Virus record (IMG/VR): IMGVR_UViG_3300027563_000599
Length of the DNA: 64,000 nt
Reading direction: 5' to 3' (one strand)
DNA from: an uncultured virus (IMG/VR IMGVR_UViG_3300027563_000599)
Lineage: Duplodnaviria > Heunggongvirae > Uroviricota > Caudoviricetes
Shown: positions 1,766 through 34,306 of the stretch, one piece after another
Numbering within the stretch: position 1 is the stretch's first letter
How the letters are laid out: each line of letters begins with the position of its first letter
Made by a program: the position numbers and the translations under genes
The notes under the pieces: generated by a model
What the model saw: only the letters and a program-made list of their open reading frames with translations
What the model was told of the DNA's origin: nothing
Databases searched by the model: none

Positions 1766-2352
1766 GTTTTGATAGCATACTAAAATTTGAACGAGATTTG
1801 GCTAAGTTTACCGGCGCACCTTACGCCGTGATGACTGATTGTTGCACCCATGCCATCGAGCTGTGTCTACGCTACGACCAAATTCGATCCTGTAGCTTTA
1901 CAGCGTTTACCTATCTGAGCATTCCTATGACCATGCACAAACTGGGCATCAAGTACAGTTTGGAAAACGAACCGTGGATTGGAGAATATCAGTTCCATGA
2001 CACCCGCATCTGGGACTCGGCTCGCAGGCTAGAAAAAGACATGTATCGTGAAGGTACTATGCAGTGCTTGAGCTTTGGCCACGGCAAACCCTTGCATATT
2101 GGGCGCGGTGGTGCCATCTTGTTAGACGATGTGGTTGCCTATGACACCATACTGTCTCAACGCTATGACGGTAGAGATCTTACAGTTTTGCCTTGGCAGT
2201 CGCAACAGGTATTCAAGGTGGGCTATCACTACAAGCCCACTATTGAAGAAGCCGAGCAGGGCTTGGTTCTGTTGGAAGGAGTTCGAAACAATCGACCTAC
2301 TCCTGTACATGTTGATTACCCAGATTGCAGAAAAATAACTATTGTGCCTTGA
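1762..2352 (+). CDS. Short DegT/DnrJ/EryC1-like PLP-dependent aminotransferase-family protein
   Basis: FERDLAKFTGAPYAV..CTHAIELCL; CLSFGHGKPLHIGRGGAI PLP-lysine motif; about half the normal length. Confidence 0.7.
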   Translation: MSFDSILKFERDLAKFTGAPYAVMTDCCTHAIELCLRYDQIRSCSFTAFTYLSIPMTMHKLGIKYSLENEPWIGEYQFHDTRIWDSARRLEKDMYREGTMQCLSFGHGKPLHIGRGGAILLDDVVAYDTILSQRYDGRDLTVLPWQSQQVFKVGYHYKPTIEEAEQGLVLLEGVRNNRPTPVHVDYPDCRKITIVP

Positions 2353-2377
2353 CAAGGTCCTAAATATCCTATATAAT
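2349..2377 (+). promoter_or_regulatory. sigma70-type promoter for folE
   Basis: TTGACA-N17-TATAAT. Confidence 0.7.
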
Positions 2378-2419
2378 ATAACACACGACATCCACGTCAC
2401 TAACTCGGAGAAATACAAA

Positions 2420-3250
2420 TTGACAACAGAATTTATACCAGATAGCCTTGCTAATTCCAAGATGGAATTTATGCCAGATCAATACACACCACTGGGCAAG
2501 GAAGTGTATGTTAAAAAAGAAACAGGCCTAGACGCCATGGCCGGCGACGGCGGCTACCAAGAAGCATACCTAGGCGATCATCTTCGCTTTAAAATGCGGC
2601 GTGATAACAAACGTTTCTGGGCCGGCGACAACATCAGCGACTACCTGCACGAAGGCGACATTGAACGACTGATTGATGAAGCCACGCCAGCATTTGAAAC
2701 TGTGCTGGATCGTTTGCTGATTGATAGAGAAACTGATCCAAACAGTAAGGGTACAGCAAGACGACTTGCTAAAATGTACTTTAATGAAATAATGGCAGGT
2801 AGATATGAACCAGAACCAGACGCAACAGCATTTCCAAATGACTCGGCGGATCGTTACGAAGGCATGCTGGTTGTTCGCAGTGAGCTTCGTAGTATGTGTA
2901 GCCATCATCATCAACCCGTTAGTGGCGTTGCTTATATTGGCCTTATTGCCGCACAGAAACTTATTGGACTGTCCAAGTACACCAGAATTGCACAGTGGTG
3001 TGCAAGACGAGGCACTCTCCAGGAGGAACTGGCTATTGACATTGCTCGGGAAATAATGAAGGCCACTGACGCTACCGATGTAGGTGTGTACGTACAAGCT
3101 GTGCATGGGTGCTGTGAGAATCGTGGCATTATGGCACACAGTAGTCTGACACAGACTACAGTGCTTAAAGGTGCGTTTAAAGATGACCAAAGCACAAAAA
3201 AAGAATTCTTTGACAATATCAAACTACAACAGGACTTTGCTCCAAGATGA
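2420..3250 (+). CDS. folE: GTP cyclohydrolase I
   Basis: [29 protein letters not shown] motifs; probable TTG start after GGAGA. Confidence 0.92.
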
Positions 3251-3579
3251 CCTATGTCGTAACCGATGACTGCATTTTATGCAAACACACTGACTGTGTA
3301 GAAGTGTGCCCGGTAGATTGTTTTGTTGAAGGACCAAACTTTTTAGCCATCAACCCAGACGAGTGCATTGACTGTGCAGTATGTGTTCCAGAATGTCCTG
3401 TTAATGCAATCTATGCTGAAGAGGATGTGCCGGAAAATCAACAGGCATTTATAAAGATCAATGCTGACCTTGCCGGCCATTGGCCCGCTATTACTCGACG
3501 CAAGGATCCCTTGCCAGATCATGAACGATGGACCAATGTGCCGGACAAATTACAACACCTAGATCGCGGCACAGTGTAA
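3247..3579 (+). CDS. fdxA: 7Fe ferredoxin (FdxA family)
   Basis: [26 protein letters not shown]...[12 protein letters not shown]. Confidence 0.92.
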
Positions 3580-3619
3580 AAATGTTATTGTATATTACTG
3601 TCATATAAAAGGAACCAAT

Positions 3620-4039
3620 ATGAATTTGCCGTACACACAAGAGATATTTCCTGGGTTGCCTCCGGAAATTAATAAACAACTTGCACCGTGGACCGAACGG
3701 GTACGTGAAGATTTCCATGTTGTAGTGTTTAACGATATCTATCCAGTGACGCCTGGGCACATGTTGTTTGTTCCAAAATTCAACACAGTGAGTGTGCTGA
3801 TGGATGCCATGCGCGATGCTGTTCAGCACGGCCAAGCGCAGGTTGAATCTGGCGAATGGGACGGGTTTAACATTGGCATGAATTACGGATCAGCTGCCGG
3901 ACAAACAGTGCCATGGCCACATGTGCATTTGATTCCACGCAGAGCAGGCGACGTAGAAGATCCTATTGGTGGCGTTAGAAACACCATTCCTGGCCAGGGC
4001 AATTATCGTACTGGCAGTTATAAACATCCTGATGTTTGA
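3620..4039 (+). CDS. HIT family hydrolase
   Basis: YPVTPGH; AGQTVPWPHVHLIPR. Confidence 0.88.
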   Translation: MNLPYTQEIFPGLPPEINKQLAPWTERVREDFHVVVFNDIYPVTPGHMLFVPKFNTVSVLMDAMRDAVQHGQAQVESGEWDGFNIGMNYGSAAGQTVPWPHVHLIPRRAGDVEDPIGGVRNTIPGQGNYRTGSYKHPDV

Positions 4040-4058
4040 CAGAATAAATATTCTTCTT

Positions 4059-4125
4059 CAGCGGACTTTAGAGCATCGACCCGCTATACAAACTCCGCTG
4101 CCTATGCTATAATCAACATAGGAGA
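4059..4125 (+). promoter_or_regulatory. Candidate preQ1-I-like riboswitch/structured 5' UTR of queD
   Basis: AGCGG/CCGCT stem, loop GAGC, A-rich tail ATACAAACTC, alternative CAGCGGA/TCCGCTG helix, CCTATG/CATAGG hairpin over the SD. Confidence 0.45.
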
Positions 4126-4130
4126 AATCA

Positions 4131-4676
4131 ATGGCAAAATATTATTCAACAAAAACCTACGGTACAGACAGAGGGCTGAGTTGCTGTTTTAGACAGTGGC
4201 GTGCCAAACACAGCCACTGCTCAACACTGCACGGCTACAGTCTCGGCATCAAATTGGTGTTTGAATGTGACACACTGGATGAGAAAAACTGGTGTATGGA
4301 CTTTGGCGGCCTCAAAGAATTCAAAGCCTGGGCAGATCACATGTTTGATCACACTTTGGTTATTGCCGAAGACGATCCCCAGCTAGAATTTTTCAAACAA
4401 ATGGCATTGATTGACACCAACTGGACTTTGCCCGAAACCGGTCCAGATGAAATGCAAGTTAATAGAGATAATTTTGAGCCGTATCAAAGAGGATCACTTT
4501 GCGACTTGCGTATTGTGCCCGGAGTGGGCTGTGAAATGTTTGCCAAAATGTGCTATGACAAAATGGCAGAACTGCTGGCCAGTGGTGATATGCGTTACCC
4601 AATCAATCCAACAGTACGAGTCAAGAGTGCAGAAGTGTTTGAACACGCAGGCAACAGTGCCACCTACGAAGGTTAA
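4131..4676 (+). CDS. queD: 6-carboxy-5,6,7,8-tetrahydropterin synthase (6-pyruvoyl-tetrahydropterin synthase family)
   Basis: HCSTLHGYS, MDFGGLK, FDHT, EVFEHAGNSATY. Confidence 0.85.
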   Translation: MAKYYSTKTYGTDRGLSCCFRQWRAKHSHCSTLHGYSLGIKLVFECDTLDEKNWCMDFGGLKEFKAWADHMFDHTLVIAEDDPQLEFFKQMALIDTNWTLPETGPDEMQVNRDNFEPYQRGSLCDLRIVPGVGCEMFAKMCYDKMAELLASGDMRYPINPTVRVKSAEVFEHAGNSATYEG

Positions 4677-15642: not shown

Positions 15643-16413
15643 ATGAAAAATATGAAATTATTTGCCATTGTGTTTTTTTGTGCAGCATTGACCAATGCTA
15701 CAGCTCGAACCAGTGAGCCCACAGTGTTGGTCTACAACATCAACGCACAGCACACGGAACTGAACCGTTATGCCGATCAGGTGAGATCCATGGCCAGTAT
15801 AACCAAGCTGATGACTGCCATGGTCGCACTGGATCACAACAGAGATCTACTACAGCCAATGATGTTGGGGAAAAACAGCGGTAGTCGATTGCCGCCTGGT
15901 CAGTACACCAGAGAGCAGTTGTTAAAGGCCATGTTGGTCAGCAGTGACAACGGAGCAGCCGAAGCCATCGCACAGGACTATCCCGGGGGCCGATCTGCAT
16001 TTGTAGCTGAGATGAATCGGCATGCTAAAATGTGGGATCTTCGAAATACTAAATTTGTAGATCCGTCGGGACTGGGCGTGTTCAATGTGACCACTGCGCA
16101 GGACCTGGCGGAGATGGTGCAGATTGCTGCCGGTTATTGGTTTATACAAGAAGTCAGCGGTCAACCCACTGTACAGTTAAAAAAGTCAGACCGAACTCGT
16201 GGCAACACTTTGAATCTCATTCACACATCTCAACAACTGATGGCAGAGTTTGACCGTGTGGCTGTGAGCAAGACTGGATTTACCACGCCAGCTGGGTGGT
16301 GTGTGGCCATGTTGGTGGAACACAACCGGCAACAGTATGCAGTGATTGTGTTGGGTGCCAGTTCCAAACTGGATCGCAATGCAATTATAAAGAAAGCGTT
16401 TAAAAATTTATAA
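15643..16413 (+). CDS. D-alanyl-D-alanine carboxypeptidase/endopeptidase (peptidase S11)
   Basis: Signal peptide; SITK, SDN, KTG catalytic motifs. Confidence 0.88.
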   Translation: MKNMKLFAIVFFCAALTNATARTSEPTVLVYNINAQHTELNRYADQVRSMASITKLMTAMVALDHNRDLLQPMMLGKNSGSRLPPGQYTREQLLKAMLVSSDNGAAEAIAQDYPGGRSAFVAEMNRHAKMWDLRNTKFVDPSGLGVFNVTTAQDLAEMVQIAAGYWFIQEVSGQPTVQLKKSDRTRGNTLNLIHTSQQLMAEFDRVAVSKTGFTTPAGWCVAMLVEHNRQQYAVIVLGASSKLDRNAIIKKAFKNL

Positions 16414-16417
16414 CATT

Positions 16418-16509
16418 GGCCCTGTAGTTTAATGGTAAAACGGCGGATTTATATCCCGTAAGCAACAGATAATTGGTTCATGTGGGTTCGAATCCCGCCG
16501 GGGCTACCA
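16418..16509 (+). tRNA. tRNA-Ile(TAT) with long variable region
   Basis: Loop TTTATAT, about 22-nt variable region, A73-CCA. Confidence 0.7.
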
Positions 16510-17992: not shown

Positions 17993-18078
17993 GGAGGTGC
18001 CGCCGTAATGGTATGGCAGCGGACTGTAACTCCGCCGGACTCAGGTCTCAATAGGTTCGATCCCTATCACCTCCACCA
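17993..18078 (+). tRNA. tRNA-Tyr(GTA)
   Basis: Loop CTGTAAC, V arm, ACCA. Confidence 0.9.
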
Positions 18079-18082
18079 GAAC

Positions 18083-18269
18083 GTTCTGTTTAATCAACAG
18101 ATAGTGCGACCCGCACGATGAGAAGTGGTGTGATAGCCACGGGTGGTAGTCTTTGAACCGAAAGGCCGCTGGCAATGCGATAACGGTTCCTGTCGGGAAG
18201 CGGGTGGAAGGTATGTGTGATGACTCCAAAGGTCTGATGTACTACAATTACCGCCGGGGGATGCAGAGC
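18083..18269 (+). ncRNA. Unidentified structured RNA (about 190 nt), possibly pseudoknotted
   Basis: GTTCTGT/GCAGAGC ends; GGTGGTAGT/ATTACCGCC; crossing ACCCGC/GCGGGT. Confidence 0.5.
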
Positions 18270-18273
18270 ATAT

Positions 18274-18347
18274 GGGGGATTAGTTAAATGGGATAACGGT
18301 AGCTTTGCAAGCTTCAATTAAGAGTTCGATTCTCTTATCCTCCACCA
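18274..18347 (+). tRNA. tRNA-Ala(TGC)
   Basis: G3:U70, loop TTTGCAA, ACCA. Confidence 0.9.
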
Positions 18348-18351
18348 ATTT

Positions 18352-18426
18352 AGGCCTTTAGTAAAATGAATATTACACTGGGCTACGAACCCGGAAGTGG
18401 GAGTTTGATTCTCTCAGGGCCTACCA
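18352..18426 (+). tRNA. tRNA-Arg(ACG)
   Basis: Loop CTACGAA, ACCA. Confidence 0.85.
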
Positions 18427-18447
18427 ATTTAAAACAAAGGAAACTTT

Positions 18448-18594
18448 ATGAAGAAACGTAAACCGATCGTGCGCGAACGTAACTGCTTCGTTCGTCTTGC
18501 ACTGTTCCGCAAAGCAGGTGCGCATCGCAAGAGCAACAAGGCTCTACGACGAGCACAAAAACAAAACCCATTAGGGGGTGAAACTTTAAGGTGA
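18448..18594 (+). CDS. Small basic protein, candidate ribosome-rescue (ArfA-like) factor; stop codon inside tRNA-Lys
   Basis: AAAGGA SD; MKKRKPIVRERNCFVRLALFRKAGAHRKSNKALRRAQKQNPLGGETLR*. Confidence 0.6.
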   Translation: MKKRKPIVRERNCFVRLALFRKAGAHRKSNKALRRAQKQNPLGGETLR

Positions 18595-18647
18595 AGTAAC
18601 TGGCTTTTAACCAGTAAAACTCGGATCGTTCCCGAGCACCCCTACCA
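18574..18647 (+). tRNA. tRNA-Lys(TTT)
   Basis: ACTGG-CTTTTAA-CCAGT, ACCA; atypical T-loop ATCGTTC. Confidence 0.82.
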
Positions 18648-18751
18648 TATAAAAACATATTCAAATGCTTAGGCCAGGCAGATGTAGCGGATTACAGCTC
18701 GACGACATGTTGGGTGGGCAGGTTCAATTCCTGCGGAGTATGTTTCTATAT
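18648..18751 (+). ncRNA. tRNA-like RNA with T-arm and extended terminal stem
   Basis: GCAGG-TTCAATT-CCTGC; closing stem 18644-18662/18736-18754; no CCA end. Confidence 0.45.
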
Positions 18752-18827
18752 GGTAATATAGCATAGTGGCTAATGCAGTTGCTTCATACGCAGCCTATCG
18801 TTGGTTCGAGTCCAACTATTACCACCA
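18752..18827 (+). tRNA. tRNA-Met(CAT), elongator (or Ile2)
   Basis: Loop TTCATAC, ACCA. Confidence 0.85.
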
Positions 18828-18841
18828 CGGTAACATTTTGT

Positions 18842-18915
18842 TGGGGGTTAGTGTAGCGGTAACACTACAGACTTTGACTCTGTCATCACTGGTTCGATCC
18901 CAGTACCCTCTGCCA
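18842..18915 (+). tRNA. tRNA-Gln(TTG)
   Basis: Loop CTTTGAC, GCCA. Confidence 0.88.
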
Positions 18916-18918
18916 ATT

Positions 18919-18993
18919 CTCGCCTTAGTATAATGGATAATACAAAGAGCTTCTACCTCTTGAATGTGGGTTCGATTCCTGCAGGCGAGGCCA
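18919..18993 (+). tRNA. tRNA-Arg(TCT)
   Basis: Loop CTTCTAC, GCCA. Confidence 0.88.
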
Positions 18994-19033
18994 CAATACT
19001 CAATTGACGATGATATCGTCAAATAAATAGAGG

Positions 19034-21206: not shown

Positions 21207-21296
21207 GGAAGCGTGTCCGAGTGGCCGATGGAACTGGTCTACTAAACCAGCATACGAGTAATCGTATCGTGAGTTCGAATCTCACCGCTTCCGCCA
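21207..21296 (+). tRNA. tRNA-Ser(ACT)
   Basis: Canonical Ser body (long V arm, G73), loop CTACTAA. Confidence 0.85.
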
Positions 21297-30003: not shown

Positions 30004-30043
30004 TTTATTGTGAGTTAACAGTTATGTATAATAAATAATAGTT

Positions 30044-30369
30044 ATTGCTGTATGAAGCCGATAAAAATGGATTCAAGACGCGGGTTCGACTCCCGCCACC
30101 TCCACCTAAGTGTATAAGGTATATTTAGGTGGGGGTGACCAGGTTATCGATTGGGTCAGAAGTATTGAAGTGGACAGCTCGGCAAGGTAGAAGCCGTAGG
30201 ATTGGGGCAACCCGGTCGAAGACACAAAAAACGTAAATGCAAACGCAAATACAGGCGAAGTAACTGTTTCAGGCAAGAGCGTCAAGTTCTCTGCTCGTTC
30301 AGTGAAAGCCGAATCTTTCGCAGTCTAACCACTGGCGTAGGGTAAGACATACCTCGTAACAGAAACTCA
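30044..30369 (+). ncRNA. ssrA: Circularly permuted (two-piece) tmRNA
   Basis: GACGCGGGTTCGACTCCCGCCACCTCCA acceptor piece precedes GGGGGTGAC..TCGA coding piece (G3:U70); resume codon after GTAAAT; tag ANANTGEVTVSGKSVKFSARSVKAESFAV* (30239-30328). Confidence 0.85.
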
Positions 30370-30392
30370 GAACCCGCTTCGGCGGGTTTCTC
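30370..30392 (+). terminator. Intrinsic terminator after tmRNA
   Basis: AACCCGC-TTCG-GCGGGTT hairpin. Confidence 0.75.
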
Positions 30393-30531
30393 TATTGATT
30401 TTGCCTATAGACATCATTAAAATATATTTGACAAGAATCCAACAAAGTCGTTGACTTGATTGATATATACTGGTATAATAACGTATCAGTGTTTACACTG
30501 AGATAGATTTCATTTTTAACAGGAGAAACAT

Positions 30532-33681: not shown

Positions 33682-33900
33682 ATGAACATAATTAAATGGG
33701 TGTGCTTTAGCATCATGCTGGCAGGAGCCATAGTGGTCAGTTTCAATCTAGATCCCATCGTAGGTATCATATTGTTGTTTGCAGGCAATGCCGCTTGGCT
33801 GGCCACTGCGGTGCGTACAAAAGATTGGCCTAGTGCCGCAAACTTTGCCATGTTGGCCACAGTGTGGTTTCTTGGTATTGTACAATATTATAAAGGATAA
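33682..33900 (+). CDS. Small membrane protein
   Basis: Three hydrophobic segments. Confidence 0.55.
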   Translation: MNIIKWVCFSIMLAGAIVVSFNLDPIVGIILLFAGNAAWLATAVRTKDWPSAANFAMLATVWFLGIVQYYKG

Positions 33901-33907
33901 TCGTGAT

Positions 33908-34306
33908 ATGAAATTATGGAAAAACATTGACATTGCAATCTTAGACAGTTTGCCCAACACTGCGGTTGGATACGAGCAAAGAATTACCATTCCTGAATTT
34001 ACTTTTTTAGGCAAGCACGATCAACCAGATTTTGGCAGTATCAAGTTGTGGTTTTATGGCCAAGACAAAACTATTGAATTAAAAAGTTTAAAAAATTATC
34101 TTTTTCAATATCGAGATACCGTGATAAGTTATGAGAGATGCATAGATGTATTATACAAACATCTTATGGAGACCTATCAACCTGTGCGTCTGCGTGTTCA
34201 AATAGATTTTAGACCTAGAGGTGGAATCAGCAGTTGTATGACTGCCGACAGTGATTGGGGCCACTTAGGAGGTACTGATAAGTTATGGCAAGACCACAAG
34301 GAATAA
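33908..34306 (+). CDS. QueF-like T-fold protein lacking the catalytic Cys
   Basis: [32 protein letters not shown]. Confidence 0.75.

Follow-up and report, generated by a model that had tools for sequence, protein, structure and literature searches.

A phage mini-gene that reads into tRNA-Lys: a candidate stop-less message made by tRNA processing

Why would a gene place its first in-frame stop codon inside a tRNA? The question is raised by a mini-gene of an uncultured Caudoviricetes virus (IMG/VR record IMGVR_UViG_3300027563_000599), of which a 64,000-nucleotide stretch, referred to here as the window, was analysed. The mini-gene is an open reading frame (ORF) at 18448..18594 on the plus strand that runs into a tRNA-Lys(UUU) gene. 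Our best explanation, which we hold tentatively, is that tRNA maturation would turn its transcript into a stop-less mini-mRNA, gated by transfer-messenger RNA (tmRNA), and that the product would be an analogue of the rescue-type factors ArfA and BrfA. The parts of this explanation differ in strength, and they are taken here in turn.

The mini-gene and its junction with tRNA-Lys

As read on uncut RNA, the mini-gene encodes 48 amino acids followed by TGA (MKKRKPIVRERNCFVRLALFRKAGAHRKSNKALRRAQKQNPLGGETLR), and 16 of the residues are lysine or arginine. A Shine–Dalgarno (SD) sequence, AAGGA (18438..18442, plus strand), stands 5 nt 5′ of its start codon, an ATG at 18448. The overlap with tRNA-Lys(UUU) (18574..18647, plus strand, ARAGORN, CCA encoded) is 21 nt, and the final seven codons of the ORF (GGETLR and the stop) are tRNA sequence. 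The TGA, which is the first in-frame stop (18592..18594, plus strand), occupies tRNA nt 19–21 at the junction of D-loop and D-stem; counted on the sequence, its TG closes the D-loop and its A opens the 3′ strand of the D-stem. The tRNA itself is a full cloverleaf with anticodon UUU by both ARAGORN and Rfam RF00005, the latter covering 18574–18644 (model positions 1–71) at 49.3 bits, where the gathering score is 29. This anatomy bears out the initial annotation, which had described the SD, the lysine- and arginine-rich ORF of this length, its run into tRNA-Lys, and the position of the TGA.

An RNase P cut at the 5′ end of tRNA-Lys (18573/18574) is predicted to take away the stop codon. What would be left are the 42 codons 5′ of the tRNA (18448..18573, plus strand), which hold the conserved protein core, MKKRKPIVRERNCFVRLALFRKAGAHRKSNKALRRAQKQNPL, and are the predicted product of the stop-less mRNA. 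Upstream, tRNA-Arg(acg) (18352..18426, plus strand, ARAGORN and Rfam) ends 21 nt before the ATG, and its 3′ end would set the 5′ end of an excised mini-mRNA of ~147 nt. The remaining protein genes of the window's tRNA array served as a control: 4/4 stop 2–55 nt before the next tRNA (stop/next tRNA start at 16413/16418, 19927/19930, 21152/21207, and 22468/22476).

The mini-ORF is almost certainly a real gene, and it is under purifying selection. Over an ungapped 25-codon core (61 distinct DNAs, 1295 pairs), the ratio of nonsynonymous to synonymous substitution rates (dN/dS) was 0.125. For example, Synechococcus phage BUCT-ZZ01 (ON615601.1, Kyanoviridae) has a homologue annotated as a 48-aa coding sequence (UTS52149.1), which shares AGAHRKSNKALRR with the window ORF despite nearly all-synonymous codon changes, including agc>tca, and likewise enters its tRNA-Lys by 21 nt. 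Homologues usually have an SD-like motif as well, with one in 62 of their 66 distinct upstream regions. A word-seeded protein search identified 61 relatives among 83 candidates, and a full profile search returned 590 clusters (50% identity) at E ≤ 1e-3, with 84 at E ≤ 1e-10; the predicted proteins are 42–192 aa long and the family domain is nearly always N-terminal. An alternative is that the frame arose by chance in a non-coding, conserved leader of tRNA-Lys, as the ORF is short, is flanked by tRNAs, and lacks an annotation in many records. The substitution pattern already contradicts this, through the low dN/dS and multi-nucleotide synonymous serine changes, and the SD motifs, the N-terminal domain common to 590 clusters, and copies that occur away from any tRNA also stand against it. 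We regard it as next to negligible.

Ten residues are invariant in an alignment of 60 sequences (R11, N12, R21, A23, G24, H26, R27, K28, K31, and R34). The conserved stretch of the family is RKAGxHRKSNKAxR, and the invariant motif is G-x-H-R-K. AlphaFold2, run on the family alignment, predicted two helices, 13–23 and 30–39, with a predicted local distance difference test (pLDDT) score of 74 over 42 aa. The product would be a very basic, two-helix protein of about 42 residues, and it belongs to an uncatalogued family found widely among jumbo phages of fresh water; the sequencing runs that contain the window stretch are freshwater or lake metagenomes. No Pfam (E ≤ 10), PHROGs, or NCBIfam model fits the window ORF, where only sub-threshold noise was seen (CP2, TPR_WDR35), and the same was true of 60 members with Pfam and NCBIfam and of 147 more representatives with Pfam (E ≤ 0.01). 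The ESM Atlas returned unnamed clusters only, with DUF7230 on 26% of one cluster at a score of 0.87; this label was rejected for the family, as the Pfam scans did not reproduce it.

Is the junction peculiar to the window? The best 80 of 173 IMG/VR relatives were fetched and, with the window and BUCT-ZZ01, gave 82 places. The first in-frame stop lies inside tRNA-Lys(ttt) in 75 of these; one ORF runs off the fetched DNA and six stop elsewhere. The overlaps measure 8, 10, 13, 15, 16, 21, 23, 26, 29, or 30 nt, so every one of the three reading frames is represented. The junctions involve 42 distinct tRNA-Lys sequences of several types, and the upstream tRNA neighbour differs between places (Arg, Ala, Gln, Gly, Met, Ile, Glu, or Cys), while the number of full codons between ATG and tRNA stays at 37–45. 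Where an upstream tRNA is present, its 3′ end falls 17–26 nt before the ATG in 45 of 78 places, so that processing of both tRNAs would free an RNA of ~150 nt holding the SD and the ORF only.

The tRNA-encoded tails vary by clade (GGETLR, GV, GL, EV, SIAQLVEQ, and others). The sharing of 5- and 6-aa words between tails and the three-frame-translated tRNA-Lys set was assessed with a shuffle control on cluster representatives known as protein only, and a shared 5-aa word was found in 41 of 147 representatives versus 1 of 147 shuffled ones. Tails such as ...AQLVEQ..AFN..GSNP are the D-arm, anticodon loop, and T-arm read as protein.

Two of the six exceptions of this first scan (L077 and L080) belong to a sister clade whose core ends in ...EKSKK and in which a long hairpin takes the place of the tRNA. 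A second scan fetched 80 loci, among which L096–L135 form this hairpin clade (40 loci, one of them cut). In 39/39 assessable loci, the minimum-free-energy fold has an uninterrupted helix of 14–26 bp whose 5′ arm begins at codon 39.7–43.7. There are 24 distinct helix sequences with compensated differences (e.g., UAAAGCAUAC/GUAUGCUUUA versus UGAAGUGUAU/AUACACUUCA), and some stems enclose a structured insert of 70–110 nt. No U-tract was found after these helices, and the next tRNA often begins directly after the stem. The in-frame stop varies in position: some ORFs end within the 3′ arm, others shortly after the stem, and others only at the next tRNA, as in L105, L120, L127, and L129, where the ORF crosses the entire hairpin and stops inside that tRNA (Arg-tct or Met-cat). 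Close relatives keep the stem with tails scrambled by frameshifts, and tails measure from 11 to >50 aa in this clade against 2–10 aa where they come from the tRNA. In the sister clade, the hairpin would be an RNase-III-type site for cutting the message.

A similar element follows tRNA-Lys in the window. A long-stemmed structure starts at the ACCA end of the tRNA (18644..18754, plus strand; fold z −4.57) and is closed by a stem of 8+10 bp, ACCAUAUA.AAACAUAUUC / GAGUAUGUUU.UAUAUGGU. Among 61 distinct flanks, 53 have a helix of at least 10 bp that starts at the tRNA-Lys ACCA end and whose interior varies widely, and RNA contigs of a related phage cover 18642–18754 at depths of 564 (run X16) and 63 (X18). 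The element is probably a processing hairpin, and it may alternatively be a small RNA in its own right. Its arms (UAUGAAAGCAUACU...) resemble those of the hairpin clade (UAUAGUAAAGCAUACU...), and the two are probably one element, which in the tRNA-less clade stands immediately after the ORF. The hairpin is probably no independent invention, since tRNA-Lys itself precedes such a helix in those 53 flanks. We infer from these likenesses that the hairpin clade lost the tRNA and retained the downstream element; its ORFs are still without a stop before the structure.

When both scans were merged and duplicates removed, 105 distinct phage neighbourhoods remained, 103 of them assessable. In 67 of the 105, the stop lies inside tRNA-Lys(ttt), and in 32, a helix of at least 14 bp starts at codon 36–47; four are of other kinds, although one of them, L142, proved to be a hairpin locus whose start had been set wrongly, and in two the fetched DNA ends first. 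Thus, in 99 of the 103 assessable neighbourhoods (100 with L142), the ORF meets a tRNA or long helix before any stop. Homologues that normally stop ahead of the tRNA would have spoken against the initial annotation, and those of the phage family do not do so. As gene-level logic, a message made stop-less by processing is well supported, through the 67 tRNA and 32 hairpin neighbourhoods and the four control genes; together with the 75 of 82 places above, they put the arrangement beyond chance. On this comparative evidence, the message is probably meant to lose its stop through a cut at about codon 40, and the strongest argument for a cut there is the same gene-level signature in two architectures, tRNA and hairpin.

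Proposed mechanism and known precedents

How might such a message work? The mini-gene would be embedded in a polycistronic tRNA precursor. Processing at the 3′ end of the upstream tRNA, together with RNase P cleavage at the 5′ end of tRNA-Lys(UUU), would excise the ~147-nt mini-mRNA, which would end after codon 42 without a stop codon. Ribosomes on the mini-mRNA would stall at its 3′ end, and tmRNA, both the host's and the permuted one of the phage (30015–30419), would tag the product for degradation. Untagged protein would build up only when trans-translation is saturated, and it would then most likely bind ribosomes and help to clear stalled or stop-less complexes, as a functional analogue of ArfA/BrfA and not a homologue. 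We infer that cleavage outruns translation and that the product is tagged by tmRNA. A rescue-type function, argued by analogy, has in our view somewhat less than even odds; an action on stalled ribosomes is suggested by the stop-less logic, by the size and charge of the protein, and by its company (tRNAs, tmRNA, and once RtcB).

RNA data touch on the predicted cut. Six metatranscriptome runs contain part of the window stretch, all as contigs. In run X15, a 155-nt contig of depth 2.6 matches 18441–18573 with 0 differences, departs from the window exactly at the predicted RNase P site, and continues with 22 foreign letters. Those 22 letters are absent from the window, from 175 fetched loci, from IMG/VR, and from JGI metagenome contigs; they include GGATCC and may stem from a linker. 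Parts of 18000–19000, the tRNA-Lys body among them, had no RNA-contig cover and are uninformative.

The phage-encoded tmRNA is of the permuted, two-piece kind (30015..30419, plus strand; ARAGORN, with tag ORF), and RF04321 matches it at 30046–30271 with 93 bits against a gathering score of 47. A permuted tmRNA was also present in 7/7 other phage records with a tRNA-Lys-type gene (G007–G012, each at least 93% complete, and BUCT-ZZ01), a sample made up of gene carriers only. Of six tmRNAs examined in relatives, five carry canonical ...ALAA or ...LMAA tags. G013, a complete hairpin-clade genome, lacks both kinds of tmRNA, so the mini-gene is not dependent on a phage tmRNA. As for the tags themselves, that of the window tmRNA is predicted to be unusually long (ANANTGEVTVSGKSVKFSARSVKAESFAV), a relative's tmRNA (L180:1470-1959) has the predicted tag ANVNKTVTVSGKNIKFSARSAKEALAV, and five other tmRNAs of the phage group have short canonical tags (ANDSKFALAA and similar).

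Known back-up rescue factors provide a precedent for stop-less messages. In the account given in PMC8012679, the arfA stem-loop causes termination or RNase III cleavage and brfA has a terminator located before its stop, so that both products come from stop-less mRNAs and are repressed by trans-translation. The same account describes the terminal residues of ArfA and BrfA as poorly conserved, and ArfA, BrfA, and ArfT as mutually unrelated small basic proteins; the lack of sequence relationship between BrfA and ArfA shows that factors of this kind have evolved more than once (PMC8012679).

The phage protein shares several features with these factors. Like ArfA, it is small and very basic, its annotated ORF exceeds the conserved part and has poorly conserved tails, and an RNA structure within the ORF would remove the stop, this being an RNase III hairpin/terminator in arfA and hairpins of 14–26 bp at codon ~40 in the sister clade. 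Unlike ArfA, its active part would be ~42 aa rather than 52–55 aa, it is phage-borne, and RNase P would do the cutting, at a tRNA, an arrangement for which ArfA offers no described example. BrfA (B. subtilis YqkK) is likewise a small basic factor whose mRNA, as PMC8012679 reports, ends before the stop and is regulated by trans-translation. However, BrfA relies on an in-ORF rho-independent terminator, whereas the phage structures have no U-tract, and its KH motif is not matched by the G-x-H-R-K of the family. ArfT of Francisella is also basic and about 40 aa long, and the RKAGxHRKSNK of the family loosely resembles its KKGGSTNKK, the stretch quoted in PMC6299226 being the only part compared. 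Unlike the family, arfT is described in that source as lacking both a terminator and an RNase III site 5′ of its stop, and its mRNA level as ssrA-independent (PMC6299226).

Compared with stop-less regulation of the ArfA/BrfA type, the trigger, the protein family, and the phage carrier would be novel. Transcripts that join an mRNA to a tRNA and owe the mRNA 3′ end to RNase P are familiar, for example, from E. coli secG-leuU. There, as here, the message lies directly 5′ of the tRNA on one transcript and RNase P separates the two. In such examples, however, the stop codon lies before the tRNA, whereas here the cut would remove it. Full-text literature searches, which mostly reached titles and abstracts, returned no paper on such a phage protein or on an RNase-P-made stop-less mRNA. 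In its boldest form, the proposal would make the family a fourth independently evolved class of back-up rescue factor, carried by phages, triggered by RNase P or RNase III, dependent on saturation of tmRNA (the phage's own included), and set in a tRNA-Lys(UUU) cassette that sustains translation when, during infection, the host cleaves tRNA-Lys or shreds mRNAs; we consider this extended form unlikely.

Weighing the proposal against its alternatives

Several observations weigh against the proposed mechanism, beginning with the protein itself. The initial annotation had noted an ArfA-like N..LFR..G.H resemblance, which was not borne out, as the Pfam, PDB-profile, and hhalign tests were without a match. 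The ArfA model PF03889 matched neither the ORF (E ≤ 10) nor the 60 members and 147 representatives (207 members). Comparison of the family with an ArfA alignment by hhalign gave a probability of 0.07% (E 0.72), the ArfA side being shallow, with 24 sequences from Enterobacteriaceae only (E. coli arfA, L095:6435-6650, and 23 relatives). Profile searching of the PDB (E ≤ 10) gave one hit, the unrelated synthase 6gw3_D, and none to ArfA, ArfB, SmpB, or, insofar as its chains are in the collection searched, BrfA, and Foldseek gave 0 matches at E ≤ 10 for the AlphaFold2 model against the PDB. ArfA itself recruits RF2 for peptidyl-tRNA hydrolysis on stop-less ribosomes, and its loss is synthetically lethal with that of ssrA; its KGKGS motif, a conserved tail that occupies the empty mRNA channel, is not present in the phage family. 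Across hhalign, PDB profiles, and Foldseek, no likeness to known rescue factors emerged.

We took KGG/LEA models to represent ArfT-like proteins, a choice made in part from a supplementary list; GsiB/KGG-type models of Pfam or NCBIfam matched none of the 60 members, and those of Pfam none of the 147 representatives. The ArfT-like family of Burroughs and Aravind, as their text outlines it, comprises GsiB and seed-protein-type proteins. In summary, the suggestion of the initial annotation that tRNA maturation removes the stop draws support from comparative anatomy and the conserved ORF/tRNA-Lys junction; a kinship with ArfA does not.

The message itself raises further difficulties. Ribosomes could terminate at the TGA within the tRNA on uncut precursors, and the rescue model leaves the specific partner, tRNA-Lys(UUU), unexplained. 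The break of the RNA contig at the predicted RNase P site is a weak hint, as it is one contig of depth 2.6 from one run and contigs cannot prove RNA ends. Three of the 103 assessable neighbourhoods (L064, L066, and L073) stop outside a tRNA or long helix: L064 has weaker hairpins spanning the stop (z −3.3), L066 gives z −2.5, and in L073 the stop lies 4 nt 5′ of a tRNA-Val. Searches for a tRNA hidden between core and stop found none, either with Rfam (E ≤ 1) in L064, L066, L073, L077, and L080 or with ARAGORN, introns allowed, in L064, L066, L077, and L080. L073 also carries, ~300 nt upstream of its mini-gene, a GOLLD RNA (RF02032, 223 bits; L073:768-1223) with a tRNA-Asn embedded at 830–903.

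Relatives with ordinary stops count on the same side. Nine of the 12 bacterial loci with a homologue, of a Thiomonas/Burkholderiaceae type, carry their own stop and no tRNA, and their stops are without a significant hairpin (z +1.3 to −2.2). These copies have an N-terminal extension and a conserved acidic C-terminus, ...RSRKxxxE. The copy in Acidovorax phage ACP17 (KY979132.2; L082:2480-2632) also ends at a normal stop. This homologue (...RERNPLVKPSLFRKAGRHGKSNKALRK...) is unannotated, has no ATG, GTG, or TTG at the expected start and no tRNA nearby, and overlaps its neighbours on both sides, at the stop of the gene before it and the start of the gene after it. Thus, the Thiomonas-type and ACP17 copies indicate that the protein can do without the stop-less design.

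The other bacterial copies are varied. In Achromobacter anxifer (L090), the ORF crosses a complete tRNA-Lys(ttt) inside a 12-tRNA array. In a Pseudomonadales metagenome-assembled genome (MAG; L091), the hairpin at the stop (8 bp, z −4.8) has the TAA in its loop and is the only one to stand out among the bacterial copies; the gene is directly after RtcB, with a tRNA cluster including Lys(ttt) and an HNH gene 2.5 kb downstream. On G006 contig 23 of the Pseudomonadales MAG (L189:8454-13658), an island of RtcB, mini-gene, two unknown ORFs, tRNA-Arg/Lys(ttt)/His/Gln, HNH endonuclease, and tRNA-Phe is set among ordinary chromosomal genes. A copy on an 851-bp contig of a Paceibacterota MAG bin (L083) starts 20 nt after a tRNA-Arg and has its own stop and no downstream tRNA. 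In the five Thiomonas-type loci scanned, the mini-gene is upstream of LemA, with GIDE next in three, and a link to translation sought through the flanking genes (Wzy, Uma2, LemA, GIDE) gave none. As weak context in favour of the proposal, ArfA (PF03889) was found in 0/5 bacterial genomes bearing a homologue, with E. coli positive as the control.

Could the overlap simply reflect tight packing? The ORF might be an ordinary gene translated on the uncut precursor or co-transcriptionally, with a stop that falls in the tRNA or hairpin incidentally; the overlap would then result from compaction and from the difficulty of breaking the junction, and the protein would have an unrelated role, such as RNA or DNA binding. 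Overlaps between neighbours are frequent among phage genes, the chromosomal relatives and the ACP17 copy function with normal stops, and the linker from core to tRNA is only 2–11 codons, over which, by our estimate, the chance absence of a stop is not in itself improbable. However, all four other genes of the array have their own stop 2–55 nt before the next tRNA, tails vary in frame and length while the core has a dN/dS of 0.125, and in the classed neighbourhoods the structure always starts at codon 36–47. Moreover, tRNAs are routinely cleaved by RNase P, so at least part of the mRNA pool must lose its stop even then. We rate this explanation as unlikely, though it is the most serious of the alternatives.

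Two other explanations start from the recurrent partner, tRNA-Lys(UUU). The coupling might run in reverse, with translation into the 5′ half of tRNA-Lys controlling its maturation and the peptide being secondary: ribosomes would unfold tRNA-Lys when it is plentiful and stall at AAA/AAG when it is scarce, in an attenuator-like feedback. Such a design would account for tRNA-Lys(UUU) being the partner in 67 of 105 distinct neighbourhoods although other neighbours differ, for the seven lysine codons among 42, and for an ORF that invades the acceptor stem and D-arm. It fits poorly with the strong amino-acid conservation (the 10 invariant residues are mostly non-lysine), with family members that lack an adjacent tRNA-Lys (39 hairpin-clade loci, the Thiomonas type, and ACP17), and with overlaps that range from 8 to 30 nt or cross the entire tRNA, and we think it improbable. 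Alternatively, ORF and tRNA-Lys(UUU) could be a counter-defence cassette against host nucleases of the PrrC or PARIS type, which cut tRNA-Lys. The tRNA would replace the cleaved host tRNA and the mini-protein would inhibit the nuclease or clear ribosomes stalled at lysine codons, so that this account overlaps with the rescue proposal. The tight linkage with tRNA-Lys(UUU) speaks for it, as does the Pseudomonadales gene that follows the RNA-repair ligase RtcB by a tRNA-Lys(ttt)-containing cluster and an HNH nuclease gene; a rescue system paired with RtcB, PrfH-RtcB, is described in PMC9304027. However, the RtcB context is a single locus, the adjacency is lost in the hairpin clade, and the Thiomonas copies lie upstream of LemA and GIDE without RNA-repair context. 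We give the cassette slightly less credence than reverse coupling.

Other features of the window and implications

Apart from the mini-gene, the window encodes 30 tRNA genes, the permuted tmRNA, and many auxiliary metabolic genes. Two of the ARAGORN predictions have anticodons that are unusual in bacteria, a 92-nt tRNA-Ile with tat (16418–16509) and a 90-nt tRNA-Ser with act (21207–21296). A 195-nt gap between tRNA-Tyr and tRNA-Ala (18079–18273) is covered by several metatranscriptome contigs at depths up to about 110 and had no Rfam match at the gathering score. Genes for GTP cyclohydrolase I, a PTPS/QueD-like protein, and a QueF-like protein, located at 2342–4676 and 33779–34306, suggest a 7-deazaguanine (queuosine/preQ) pathway in the phage.

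What would a stop-less message mean for these phages? If the proposed mechanism is true, tRNA processing would be an expression switch that couples protein output to trans-translation capacity, and the small set of factors known to be regulated through stop-less mRNAs (ArfA, BrfA) would be joined by a large phage family, as yet unnamed, that numbers at least 590 clusters (50% identity). The idea is directly testable, since there is a cultured member, BUCT-ZZ01, a phage of S. elongatus PCC 7942 with the 21-nt overlap and a permuted tmRNA. Even without a rescue function, ~100 independent junctions between a stop-less ORF and a processed RNA call for an explanation. With one, jumbo phages equipped with tRNAs and a tmRNA of their own would manage stalled ribosomes too.

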